This document shows, piece by piece, positions 36,728 through 42,089 of a DNA stretch of 64,000 bases. The notes below the pieces were generated by a model. That model was not told the origin of the DNA. It saw only the letters and a list, made by a program, of their open reading frames with translations, and did not search any database. The stretch lies in NCBI GenBank assembly GCA_964291265.2, contig OZ219747.1, positions 448,001 to 512,000 on the forward strand. Direction: 5' to 3'. The position numbers and the translations under genes are program-made. Position 1 is the stretch's first letter. Every line of letters starts with the position of its first letter. This DNA comes from Alphaproteobacteria bacterium. GTDB lineage: Bacteria; Pseudomonadota; Alphaproteobacteria; SP197.

Positions 36728-36943
36728 CGCCGGGACAGGCGTATTCCGCACGACGCTGCGGCGCCGGGACCTCTCACCGGCTTAGCACCGGAACACGGTT
36801 GCGCGAGATCGGTTCGTTCGACGACATCGGCCACGCCGGGGCCTTGAGGTTTCGCACGGGGACTGTTCAGGAGGGCGGTCATAAAGGGGTTCGACGATCT
36901 TGCCCGCTGCATTGCGTTGCCGGAGTCGTCCTGCTCGTTCTCC

Positions 36944-38719
36944 GTCGGGTAGGCCACTGGCGCGCGCATCCGTAGGCAGAGGCTTTGTCCGTCACCGCTC
37001 TTTCGATTGCGGGCGGGGTCGCAGTTCTCCCATAGACCACGTTTCCAGCAGTCGGGTAGGCCGCTGGCGCGCGCATCCGTAGGCAGAGGCTTTGTCCGGC
37101 ACCGCTCTTTCGATTGCGGGCGGGGTCGCAGAACTACCATAGACCACGTTTCCAGCAGCCTCCCTAAAATTCCGTACGTCCGGTTTTCCCGGGTACGGCT
37201 TCAAGCATCAGGCACCCACTTGGAGTTCGGTGCGGAGCCTTCCGCCGAACACGCCATGGTCAAGGCTGACCCGACCATACCCACGGCATCTCCGAGCGTT
37301 TGCTCCGTCCTTCGACCTTGCAGTCTGTCGGTCGGTGCCGGTCTCTGAGTACCGACTTGACCTGCCGCATAAGCCACCTGAGCCCTGAGGTCCTCGCTCA
37401 GGACGGGTTGTGTTGTCCCGCCCGTCAACGCTTACTCGACCTCATCCGCCAGTCAGGAGGACTCCGCGTCCTTTCCCAGTCCTGGTTATAGACGCGGTCC
37501 TTGACATTCAAGGGTCACTTCATCCTGTCTGTCCTCCTCACCTTCCGGCCTTTCACTGCTGTACTGTCCCGGATTGCCGTCGTCTCTACCACGGGGAACC
37601 CGATGCGTGCTCCCCAGTTCTTCCGCATCGACTCTGGCCACCAAGCTGGGGGCAGGCCCTTGGCGTTCCCAACACCCCACAAGTCAGCTTCATGTGGGAA
37701 ATTTCATTTTCGAGGCTTCGTACAATCGTTCGCTTTCGCTACGGCCCTCCGGTTCGCTCGCCGCCCTGGCTGACCAGACCAACTGGACACTGCGTTCCAG
37801 CCAGCCCACAGCGGCTTCTACATCCCAGCTCGCTGGCCCAGGGTCACCCCTGTACCAGTGGGATATGCTACGGCGCCAAACTGGGAATTGCGCCGGCGGG
37901 ACTTTCACCCGCAAGTACAGCAGCTAGACTCGCTGCACGCCCCCCTAAAATTCCGTACGTCCGGTTTTCCCGGGTACGGCTTCAAGCATCAGGCACCCAC
38001 TTGGAGTTCGGTGCGGAGCCTTCCGCCGGACACGCCATGGTCAAAGCTGACCCATCCATACCCACGGCATCTCCTTGCGTTTGCTCCGTCCTTCGACCTT
38101 GCAGTCTGTCGGTCGGTGCCGGTCTCTGAGTACCGACTTGACCTGCCGCATAGGCCACCTGAGCCCTGAGGTCCTCGCTCGGGACGGGTTGTGTTGTCCC
38201 GCCCGTCAACGCTTACTCGACCTCATCCGCCAGTCAGGAGGACTCCGCGTCCTTTCCCAATCCTGGTTATAGACGCGGTCCTTGACATTCAAGGGTCACT
38301 TCATCCTGTCTGTCCTCCTCACCTTCCGGCCTTTCACTGCTGTACTGTCCCGGATTGCCGCCGTCTGTACCCTGGGGAACCCGATGCGTGCTCATCAGTT
38401 CTTCCGCATCGACTCTGGCCATCGGGCCGGATCCACGCCCTTGGCATTCCCGACCACCCCACAAATCAGCTTCGTGTGGGAGCATCATTTCGTGGCTTCA
38501 TCCAATCGTTCGCTTTCGCTACGGCCCTCCGGTTTGCTCGCCGCCCTGGCTGACCGAACCGGTTGGGCACTGTGTCCCAGCCAGCCCACAACGGCTTTCT
38601 ACGTCCCAGCTCGCTGGTCCAAGGTCGCCCCTGAACCAGTGGGATATGCTACGGCGCCAAACTGACAATTGCGCCGGCGGGACTTTCACCCGCAAGTACA
38701 GCAGCTAGACTCGCTGCAC
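36944..38719 (-). ncRNA. ORF-less group II intron, outer member of a twintron (888 nt net)
   Basis: 5' GUGCAGCGAG at 38719, DV GAAGCCGUACCCGGGAAAACCGGACGUACGGAAUU at about 37949-37983, DVI at 36944-37050 with bulged A and ...ACCCGAC end. EBS1/EBS2 are complementary to its 5' exon. Confidence 0.9.
37051..37938 (-). ncRNA. ORF-less group II intron, inner member (888 nt), inserted in DVI of the outer intron
   Basis: Complete from GUGCAGCGAG (37938) through DV (about 37168-37202) to ACCCGAC (37051). EBS1 GCCCCC matches the flanking GGGGGC. No RT ORF. Confidence 0.92.
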
Positions 38720-39084
38720 GGATCCCGATGCTTGGCTGTCCGAGGAATTCGCCGCTCTCATCTTCGAAGGCTCGTGGCGCATGGGGTGTGACGGTAGAAC
38801 TCCGAACGGAGTCGGGATCGGGCGAAGTCGCCCTGCACACCCCATCGCCTGATACGTCGGCGTCACAAGGGAATGGAGCCGTCGCGGCGATTGATCGAGA
38901 CCACCGGTCCGCGATCTTCGAGCGCGTTCCGCGTTGTCGGCCGATCACAGAGGTAACAGAACGCGTCGTGGAGTGCAGAATCTTGGACTGTGGCCATCCT
39001 CGTTCTTCCGCAACCGGAACGTTGCGGCGTGGACATCCGTCATACAATCGGTCTACATTGTGGCCCAATCAGGAGGATCGACCC

Positions 39085-39342
39085 GTGCGCACCGTCGTTC
39101 GGGCCCGCATCGACGAAAGCACCAAGCGGGAAGCCGCCGCCGTACTCGACGCGATCGGCCTCACCGTGTCCGATGCCTTCCGCCTGATGATGGTGCGGAT
39201 CGCGGCCGAGAAACGCCTGCCCTTCGAGCCCCTGGTGCCGAACGCGGAGACTATCGCGGCCATGGAGGCCGCGCGGCGGGGCGACTTGGTCACGGTCGGC
39301 GATGTCGACGGCCTGATGGCCGACCTCCATGCGGACGATTAG
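39085..39342 (+). CDS. dinJ: RelB/DinJ-family antitoxin
   Basis: VVRARIDE..K.EAAAVL.AIGLTVSDAFRLMM.RIA.EK.LPFEPLVPNAETIAAM. RBS aggagg. Confidence 0.9.
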   Translation: MRTVVRARIDESTKREAAAVLDAIGLTVSDAFRLMMVRIAAEKRLPFEPLVPNAETIAAMEAARRGDLVTVGDVDGLMADLHADD

Positions 39343-39343
39343 A

Positions 39344-39728
39344 CCGAAGTTCCGGACGATTTCAGCGGTATAACCACACCAAGTAGTTGATCTTGCTGAT
39401 AAAATGGCACAGAGACAGCACGCAAGTGTTCCCATGTAACGGTGAAGAACTCTTGTGACACATAAGGCCTTTTCCCCATATACGTTGCCATGTACGGGGA
39501 CATAGCCCCCAACCGCATGAGGCCCTCGCCAACAATCTCTCCTCCTGGCCCATGGAGAAGGTCGAAACCCTGCGGCCCTTCCAGGTCACCATGCGACCCA
39601 CGACGCTCCGGAAAAAGGCCCTGAACCACCTCGACGTACGCCTGTAGCGTTCCCAGTAACGTCACACCCGATTATCTCAAACATCAATACATTCATAATG
39701 ATACGTCTGATCGGTGCTGGAACTTCGG
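39344..39728 (+). mobile_element. MITE (internally deleted IS1634 relative), 385 bp
   Basis: IS1634 TIRs and the same deletion junction as 8407-8793. Flanked by attaga. Confidence 0.9.
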
Positions 39729-39734
39729 ATTAGA

Positions 39735-41684
39735 CCGAAGTTCCGGACGATTTCAGCGGCAGAGTCACGATAACCGGTTGATTGTGTTGGCAAAATAGCG
39801 CGATGACGGCGCGAGAATGTTCCCATGTAACGGCGAAGTTTTCCCTTGACACGGTGGGCTTACGCCCCCATATACGTTGCCATGTACGTAGACATCGTCC
39901 CCAACCGTAACTCACCCCCCGCCGTCCTCCTGCGAGAGGGATGGCGCGAGAACGGCAAGGTCAAGAAGCGCACCATCGCCAATCTCTCCTCCTGGCCCAT
40001 GGAAAAGGTCGAGACCCTGCGGCGGTTCTTGAAGAACGAACCCCTCGTCGGTCGTGACGACGCCTTCGACATCGTCCGCTCCCTACCCCATGGGCATGTC
40101 GCCGCAGTGCTGGGAACCCTGAAGAAGCTGGGACTGGACAGGCTGATCGACCCGAAGCCCTCGCCTGAGCGCGATCAGGTCCTGGCCATGATCGTGGCAC
40201 GCATCCTCGAGCCCGCCTCGAAGCTGGCCACGGCCAGGGGGCTGGCCGAGGCCACGGCGGTCAGCACCCTGGGCGAGGTCCTCGATGCGGAGATGGACGA
40301 GGACGCCCTCTACGGCGCCATGGACTGGCTCCTGGAGCGTCAGGAGAGGATCGAGCGGTCCCTGGCGAAGCGGCACCTCGAAGAGGGCTGCCTGGTGCTC
40401 TATGACCTGACCTCGGTATGGATGGAGGGGAGAGCGTGTCCCCTGGCAAGGAGGGGTCATTCCCGGGATGGCAAGAAGGGCAAGCTGCAGATCGAGTTCG
40501 GCCTTCTGTGCGATCGGGACGGCTGTCCAGTGTCGGTGGAAGTGTTCCCCGGCAACACGGCGGACCCCGGGACGGTGGCATCACAGATCACCACGCTGCA
40601 GGAGCGCTTCTCCCTGGCGAAGGTGGTGCTGGTGGGAGACCGGGGGATGCTGACCGAGGCGCGCATACGCGAGGAGGTGAAGCCTGCGGGCCTGGACTGG
40701 ATCAGCGCCTTGAGGGGACCGGCCATCCGCGCCCTTGTGGAGGCCGGCGACGTCGAGATGTCGCTCTTCGACGAGAGGGACCTGGTGGAGATCACCAGCG
40801 ATGCGTATCCCGGCGAACGCCTCATGGTCTGCCGCAACCCCCTGCTGGCCGAGGACCGGGCCCGCAAGCGCCAGGAACTGCTCGAGGCCACCGAGGCCCT
40901 GCTTGAACCGATCGCCGCAGCGACACGGCGCGACAAGCGCCGTCTCAAGGGTGCCGACAAGATCGGGGAGCGGGTCGGCAAGGTCATCGGTAAATACAAG
41001 ATGGCGAAGCACTTCACGTGGTCCATCGACGACGAGGGTGTCTTCACCTATGGGCGCGATGAGGTTGCCATCGCCGCCGAGGCCAGGCTCGACGGCCTCT
41101 ACGTGATCCGCACCAGCCTGCCGCAGAGCGAGCTCGACGGTCCCGGCACAGTGCGCGCCTACAAGCGGTTGAGTTCGGTGGAACGGGCCTTCCGCAGCCT
41201 GAAGACCGTGGATCTGAAGGTCCGTCCCGTCTACCACCGCACCGAACCCCGGGTCCGCGCCCATGTCTTCCTGTGCATGCTCGCCTACTACGTGGAATGG
41301 CACATGCGCCAGAAACTGAAGCCCATGCTGTTCGACGACGAGGATGCCGAAGGCGCCGAGGCCCGGCGGCCGTCCGTCGTGGCGCCGGCAGAAGTCTCGG
41401 CGAGCGCCCGGGCCAAGGCGGCAACGAAGAGGACGCCCGGGGGTGATCCGGTGCACAGTTTCCGCACCCTCCTCGATGATCTCGCGACCATCACCCGCAA
41501 CACCGTGGCGCCCCGCCTTGCGGGCGCCAAACCCTTCCAGGTCACCACGCGGCCCACGCCGCTCCGGAAAAAGGCCCTGGACTACCTCGGCATACGCCTG
41601 CAGCATTCCCAGTAGCGACACACCCGATTTTTTCAAACGTCAATACATTCATAACGATACGTCTGATCGGTTCTGGAACTTCGG
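39735..41684 (+). mobile_element. IS1634-family element, intact copy, 1950 bp
   Basis: TIRs CCGAAGTTCC/GGAACTTCGG. attaga at 39729-39734 and 41685-41690. Confidence 0.93.
39882..41615 (+). CDS. IS1634-family transposase, 577 aa
   Basis: LYDLTS, GHSRDGK, VGDRGML, YKRLSSVERAFRSLK and RVRAHVFLCMLAYY. Confidence 0.93.
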   Translation: MYVDIVPNRNSPPAVLLREGWRENGKVKKRTIANLSSWPMEKVETLRRFLKNEPLVGRDDAFDIVRSLPHGHVAAVLGTLKKLGLDRLIDPKPSPERDQVLAMIVARILEPASKLATARGLAEATAVSTLGEVLDAEMDEDALYGAMDWLLERQERIERSLAKRHLEEGCLVLYDLTSVWMEGRACPLARRGHSRDGKKGKLQIEFGLLCDRDGCPVSVEVFPGNTADPGTVASQITTLQERFSLAKVVLVGDRGMLTEARIREEVKPAGLDWISALRGPAIRALVEAGDVEMSLFDERDLVEITSDAYPGERLMVCRNPLLAEDRARKRQELLEATEALLEPIAAATRRDKRRLKGADKIGERVGKVIGKYKMAKHFTWSIDDEGVFTYGRDEVAIAAEARLDGLYVIRTSLPQSELDGPGTVRAYKRLSSVERAFRSLKTVDLKVRPVYHRTEPRVRAHVFLCMLAYYVEWHMRQKLKPMLFDDEDAEGAEARRPSVVAPAEVSASARAKAATKRTPGGDPVHSFRTLLDDLATITRNTVAPRLAGAKPFQVTTRPTPLRKKALDYLGIRLQHSQ

Positions 41685-42089
41685 ATTAGACGGACCGCGG
41701 CTTTCAAGCGGGATTACAGGCGCGAGAAGAAGGGCCGCTTCGCCAAGACCGTCGATGGCGAACTCGCGCATATCGTGGCCGGGCTGGCGGAGGACCGGCC
41801 GCTCCCGCCGCGCCATCGCGACCACGCGCTTGGCAGGCAATGGAAGGACCACCGGGACTGTCACGTCCGCCCCGACCTGATTCTGATCTACCGCCAGCCC
41901 GACTCCGAACATCTCGATCTCGTGCGCCTCGCCTCGCACAATCAACTCGGCCTCTGACCGGCCGCGCTCTCCGGGCCCCCTCGATCCCCACCGTCCAGTA
42001 GTCCGCGGACGTTCCGGTCCACAACCGCGGCACTTCCCCAGGACCAGTCGTGCATAACGGCCGTCCGCCGCCTTGCCGCAACCTGCGCG

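Follow-up and report, generated by a model that had tools for sequence, protein, structure and literature searches.

An insertion target that the invader itself owns poses a problem of self versus sister, and the locus described here offers a natural experiment on it in a single base, GGGGGC against GGAGGC. In the analysed window (64,000 nt, positions 448,001 to 512,000 of contig OZ219747.1, from the alphaproteobacterial genome G000), an ORF-less group II intron (B) is nested on the minus strand in domain VI (DVI) of a sister intron (A) to which it is 93% identical. The original prediction was that an adenine at position -4 of the equivalent site in B had evolved as a device for telling self from non-self. 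At issue are how B reaches its sisters, whether its own copy is a target, and whether the adenine was selected for that effect.

B enters after the seventh base of the 5' strand of domain VI, and excising it in silico restores an intact intron A of 888 nt. On the minus strand the host junction reads ...GGAATTTTAGGGGGGC|GTGCAGCG (37954-37939|37938, with G at 37942), and the corresponding stretch of B reads GGAATTTTAGGGAGGCTGCTGG (37173-37152, with A at 37161); both letters proved exact when the sequence was re-read. The inner intron is complete, precisely inserted and in the same orientation as its host, and an empty host site is found at C2:3659365. A[B] is a group II twintron on every feature that could be tested (Table 1).

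Table 1. Features of the A[B] twintron, with coordinates in the window.
Feature	Position	Strand	Remarks
A 5' exon	38720..38732	-	IBS2 AGCAUC, spacer, IBS1 GGAUCC
Outer intron A, 5' part	37939..38719	-	ORF-less group II intron; DI-DV and 5' strand of DVI basal stem
A EBS2	38481..38486	-	GAUGCU
A EBS1	38429..38434	-	GGAUCC, complement of the end of A's 5' exon
A EBS3	38367	-	C; partner is exon +1 G at 36943
A domain V	37948..37983	-
B target in A	37939..37953	-	IBS2 GAAUUUUA, spacer G, IBS1 GGGGGC (G at 37942); IBS3 is U at 37050
Inner intron B	37051..37938	-	888 nt, ORF-less; six identical genome copies, each in an A-type host at this site
B EBS2	37699..37706	-	UGAAAUUU; 2-nt insertion relative to A
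B EBS1	37648..37653	-	GCCCCC; delta U at 37654
B EBS3	37586	-	G; position placed by covariation with exon +1
B domain V	37167..37202	-	5-nt GAAAA loop; AGC triad
B's own target copy	37158..37172	-	GAAUUUUA-G-GGAGGC, A at 37161; C-A mismatch at -4; A-U pair above branch A (37057)
Outer intron A, 3' part	36944..37050	-	Remaining DVI; branch A at 36950; terminus CCCGAC

By domain I, DV/DVI and EBS criteria the two appear to be group II introns of IIB-like type, and their mobility is read from identical copies. The 5' structure of domain I matches Rfam RF02003 at 68 and 66.7 bits (gathering score 49), folding gives a domain V with an AGC triad, a domain VI with a bulged A and a 3' end of ...GAC (AY), and the DVI stem has undergone compensatory changes across the intron family. 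Neither intron matches the Rfam DV/DVI family at its gathering score, so that the family is easily overlooked. Its members begin with GUGCAG, or the variants GUACAG and GCGCAG, which do not fit the 5' consensus GUGYG; we take this 5' end, the 5-nt loop that domain V forms when folded, and the GAAUU of the lower DV stem to be departures from the group II consensus. In the portion of the source available, a 5-nt DV loop is a feature named for lineages IIE and IIF (PMC3753933); the loop of the A/B family is reminiscent of these lineages, to either of which it may or may not belong, as it carries no IEP by which to place it phylogenetically.

The pairing rules of the family were taken from 57 insertion sites, reduced to 50 by merging those with equal 16-nt flanks and excluding two (a chimera and a tandem junction). 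In these 50 distinct natural sites EBS1 and IBS1 pair at 295 of 300 positions, and just one of the five non-pairs falls at -4. EBS3 covaries with exon position +1 (47 of the 57 sites Watson-Crick, two G-U, three mismatched and five unread), giving pairing in 49 of 52 readable sites. The EBS1 of B occupies the loop register that in other family members is complementary to the 5' exon of each, as the EBS set of A complements A's own 5' exon. All three exon-binding sites of B match the DVI site of A, EBS2 and EBS3 with wobbles; their fit to AAUUUCA-G-GGGGGC|C, the form common in the family, is better still (EBS2 duplex of -4.5 kcal/mol, vs. -2.3 on the site in A). Only nine sites in the genome fit IBS1 and IBS2 of B; seven are A hosts, and six of these are filled. 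The idea that B has been retargeted onto its sisters is supported by the fit of three elements to the DV/DVI junction, by the occupation of six of seven hosts and by identical inner copies in differing hosts. The exon-binding sites would direct B to this junction, and B probably retrohomes into its sisters one copy at a time, with a reverse transcriptase (RT) borrowed in trans.

The six copies of B do not differ at any of their 888 nt, and each interrupts its host at nt 781; the hosts themselves have diverged. Among the five B-bearing hosts of type A1 there are 13 segregating sites, against none in B, which is the pattern that separate insertions of recent date should leave; Mohr et al. took a uniform inner intron in diverged outer ones as a sign of independent insertions (PMC2882425, in the sections available). 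It has also to be considered that B entered A only once or a few times and that the six copies then spread by recombination, gene conversion or a composite A[B] lariat. The branch helix of A is able to form around B, one host looks mosaic, and at one locus two A[B] twintrons lie head to tail (C2:3772762-3769211, in an IS-like site with a single-copy counterpart at C2:3658598), all of which would suit such a history. The variation in the hosts and its absence in B speak against it, as do host polymorphisms as close as ~90-105 nt to the insertion on both sides and the five sites at which the two tandem hosts differ, and we regard it as improbable. In the mosaic host, A_1366, all 34 differences that are fixed relative to the A1 hosts fall in the 5' 402 columns of the alignment, and on this pattern it may have acquired its 3' half and B by recombination. 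As for the tandem pair, the 5' exon of the resident A, together with the first G of A, still matches A's EBS1, EBS2 and EBS3, so that A, with C as its EBS3, can re-insert before itself; this likely accounts for the arrangement. B would not do so, because the G of its EBS3 mismatches the first G of a resident B.

The seventh host (C2:3658598-3661441) is free of B, and an IS of ~1.95 kb, presumably IS1634-like, lies 20 nt downstream of its intact B target. At two further places, a remnant at C2:1767668 and locus L038, DVI is interrupted by IS ends.

A single RT family is present in the genome, as 14 identical ORFs (18 RVT_1 matches in the genome), each with an RVT_1 match, a weak GIIM match and no match to an endonuclease domain. 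The intron that encodes it has no sequence similarity to A or B, so it is no more than a candidate donor for B. It has about 15 ORF-deleted derivatives, mostly in repeated IS-like elements (examples of the RT-encoding intron are at G000 C2 953145-954629 and 857754).

Near-identical repeats invite errors of assembly or polishing, such as a repeat collapsed in tandem, and the short-read contig X4 does collapse these into a loop. Such an origin for A[B] is nevertheless extremely unlikely, given the six identical copies of B at one bond, the exact intron ends, the match of B-specific EBS sequences to the junction, the neighbouring hosts that remain distinct, the same architecture in an unrelated genome (see below), and contigs of 59 nt that cross the junction in three other runs of one study (X1-X3), just under the 31-letter rule for bridging. 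No RNA run was among the 16 runs listed, which is uninformative about splicing.

B's own copy of the site is predicted to be a much weaker partner. With RNA-RNA parameters, the EBS1 duplex of B is worth -12.5 kcal/mol on the site in A and -5.6 kcal/mol on its own, a loss of ~7 kcal/mol from the adenine at -4. Given this loss and the single non-pair at -4 in the 50 natural sites, B's own copy is likely a poor target for B, so that the A-C mismatch first noted in the EBS1 pairing would indeed hamper self-homing, with immunity as a consequence. In RmInt1, as far as the available text goes, changes in IBS1 reduce excision and block homing, and homing requires IBS3 (PMC3123198). B was found neither in a GGAGGC site nor in another B, all six copies lying at the GGGGGC bond. 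No A-state junction leading into an intron occurs in the genome, and none was listed in the three runs that contain the G-state junction, where contigs show presence and not absence. Two candidates were set aside. A contig in X4 that resembles B in B (joint 37942 to 37162) is a collapsed repeat, a near-complete loop of 781 nt with mixed A and B letters at a depth of 8.7; and a 13-mer like the A-state junction at C2:1305960 does not belong to an intron.

The effect on the helix is slight. DVI of A and of B folds to the same helix with the branch adenosine bulged, and a G-U pair in A is replaced by A-U in B just above it. The change had been described as structurally neutral, which agrees with the preserved fold and is compatible with the success of a lineage of 25 copies (lineage F, below), from which an A-U pair above the branch adenosine appears workable. 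Of the positions in IBS1, only -4 can change while its partner stays as it is. A G-U pair at the branch site can favour branching, according to work on aI5gamma.

The basal DVI stem of A consists of three pairs, the bulged A and four pairs. Since B enters after the seventh base, the stem can still close on the tail, and all seven pairs are formable around B; in a fold of 1044 nt, forcing them costs +1.3 kcal/mol, the unconstrained fold preferring other partners. On these models A may be able to splice whether or not B has left first. The strict order of the original prediction, in which A depends on B splicing before it, is plausible by analogy with the Trichodesmium twintron, for which sequential splicing was demonstrated (PMC4649490, in the part available). 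With its branch helix still formable, the locus bears on whether a host intron can splice and move with a passenger of 888 nt in DVI.

Relatives were sought as stretches with the exact domain V (53 from GTDB and 13 from metagenomes) and by whole-genome searches; because a search by exact domain V passes over variants, lineage F among them, this is not a complete sample. Among the 53 GTDB and 13 metagenome stretches a DVI junction was seen at one further locus only (L031/L032). By genome, one of 401 in the family of G061 has such a junction (G061 itself), as does one of 33 in the order of the window's own genome (G000 itself) and one of five in another genome set (again G061), with none in viral contigs. 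The invader at this locus, D (L032, genome G061), is a second and independent one. It uses the same bond as B and groups with its own host, C (99/94), not with B. A[B] appears to be a recently mobile, sister-targeting twintron, and one DVI bond has been used convergently. Host C (G061 C18) lies in turn inside another ORF-less group II intron, making a three-level nest, and its tail has a G-G mismatch at +1 that may be a conversion footprint from the adjacent 46-nt repeat of D.

Whether the adenine was selected is a separate matter. DVI invaders might have been selected, at the level of the element or of the host, to break their own target while keeping the helix, the G/A flips and the U in the EBS1 of D being traces of an arms race. 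Like B, D carries A at -4 (two of two DVI invaders); a chance flip on B's own branch, where the letter arose, has a probability of ~3-6%; and all seven DVI junctions found are in G-state sites, so that among full copies in G000 and G061 seven of nine in the G state are invaded and none of ten in the A state. These figures favour selection or lineage sorting, and the missing A-state junction in the three runs points the same way. For G000 alone (six of seven G-state vs. none of six A-state copies invaded) Fisher's test gives p 0.005, which is not taken as proof because the copies are not independent and because an invader without a mismatch shows the same pattern.

This invader, E in genome G063, homes into a domain IV site of its sisters and keeps its own 46-nt site unchanged. 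In 20 regions fetched, of 49 matches, five of 12 sister sites are invaded and none of 12 E copies. An absence of self-nests therefore needs no mismatch, and the youth of an invader or recombination between identical repeats can produce it as well. The same genome has dense same-family nests (L127-L146) at two more conserved sites, in DI near nt 194 and in DIV near nt 582; locus L129 retains two tails, a trace of deeper nesting, and L130 and L135 are chimeras collapsed by recombination.

D itself fits selection poorly at face value. Its EBS1, CCCUCC, pairs at six of six positions with its own A-state site and is slightly stronger there than on its host (-10.3 vs. -9.4 kcal/mol). It does have a compensated flip from U-G to G-U at +1, which mismatches its EBS3 (G-G), and it is the only tabulated type with a +1 G paired to U, which would count for selection if homing depends on IBS3 as in RmInt1; its host, however, likewise has G at +1, so the flip is ambiguous and D appears not to discriminate. 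The fullest form of this view is that gene-less introns preying on their own family not only came twice to one DVI bond but each broke its own target by a change that keeps the helix (B at -4 through EBS1, D at +1 through EBS3), the G/A flips and the matching U of D being the record of an arms race. It is possible but rather unlikely, and would mean target immunity by a single base in a retroelement.

Nor is the A state confined to DVI invaders, or always a mismatch in them. It is also found in L105, L107, L112b, L118, the inner intron of L040 and lineage F, with unrelated EBS1 sequences wherever these are readable (that of the L040 inner intron is not). Lineage F has 25 matches in genome G467; ten were examined, at varied sites with none at DVI, and the genome has no DVI junction. 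On the family tree the letter changes at least five times and is unclustered (150 of 500 shuffles were as low); L100 and L105 were unparsed and left out of the groups, L105 being in the A state all the same, and the truncated L040 inner intron is absent from the tree. The expected tie between letter and EBS type stands for B, with all its copies at GGGGGC, and fails in part across the family, where A accompanies unrelated EBS1 sequences and is paired by that of D.

In Methanosarcina, moreover, self-targeting has been described as supplying a homing site that is perpetual (PMC4424553, in the part available), and what B would gain by breaking its target is not obvious. All considered, selection for self-avoidance is possible but rather unlikely, and the claim that the adenine evolved for self/non-self discrimination is not upheld, in view of unrelated lineages with A, of D pairing with its own A, and of the pattern in E. 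On the account that we favour as a whole and hold to be probable, the adenine is a recurrent, near-neutral flip from wobble to Watson-Crick pair, rather than a letter demonstrably selected. If it is neutral, the locus adds one more neat example of twintron biology of a known sort, in an ORF-less family that has been little described; if it was selected, a group II intron would have target immunity that is guided by RNA, which would account for why some intron nests stay shallow and others deepen.

Lineage F (L157-L166) is 827 nt long and starts with GCGCAG. Its near-identical copies differ in EBS1, of which there are two or more variants, and several of its 3' flanks resemble coding sequence.

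Introns that home into introns are known, and the comparisons that follow go as far as the available parts of the sources. The closest parallel is in Thermosynechococcus elongatus, where the ORF-less TeI3 (F3) lies in TeI4 (F1) in twintrons and an RT acting in trans was shown (Mohr et al., 2010, PMC2882425). There too an ORF-less inner intron uses one conserved site of related introns, and identical inner copies occupy diverged outer ones. The host there, however, encodes an RT, and the target lies in its DIV, where the ORF starts, whereas A and B are both ORF-less, the target is the basal stem of DVI, which the invader also owns, and the trans-acting RT is only proposed for B, the candidate RT intron being unrelated in sequence. 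The nests of Methanosarcina acetivorans (Dai and Zimmerly, 2003, via PMC4424553 and PMC2882425) resemble B in repeated, site-specific homing into group II introns, with recombination removing copies; they are deep, in contrast to A[B], where B's own site is broken and no B-in-B nest was found. The Trichodesmium introns T.e.I7/I8 (Pfreundt and Hess, 2015, PMC4649490) are likewise a bacterial case of one group II intron within the ribozyme of a second, but are distantly related and RT-encoding, with the inner one in domain I, and in A[B] the order of splicing is perhaps not obligatory. In the self-invading and "zombie" twintrons of plant mitochondria (cox1i1149g2; Zumkeller et al., 2020, PMC7049729) an intron also lies inside a near copy of itself, but the inner copy is degenerate and is not spliced first, whereas B, with its branch A retained and its EBS/IBS pairs well matched, looks recently mobile. 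A search of the open-licence literature for self-insertion, domain VI twintrons and target immunity in group II introns gave only the reviews and cases cited here, and a target at the catalytic 3' end that the invader owns was not found in print within it.

Several other lineages of the family are also found inside group II introns (L033, L041, L046, L048, L049, L050, and L058). Some are in DI of RT-encoding introns, at two sites a few bases apart that are both occupied in L050, and some in introns of a different ORF-less family, in their DI or DIII/DIV; the L041 type is inserted in RT ORFs. Elsewhere in the window, at 39085-41958, the toxin gene of a toxin-antitoxin pair is, by eye, split by an IS element together with a short non-autonomous copy; we take the pair to be DinJ/YafQ-like and the splitting element to be IS1634-like.
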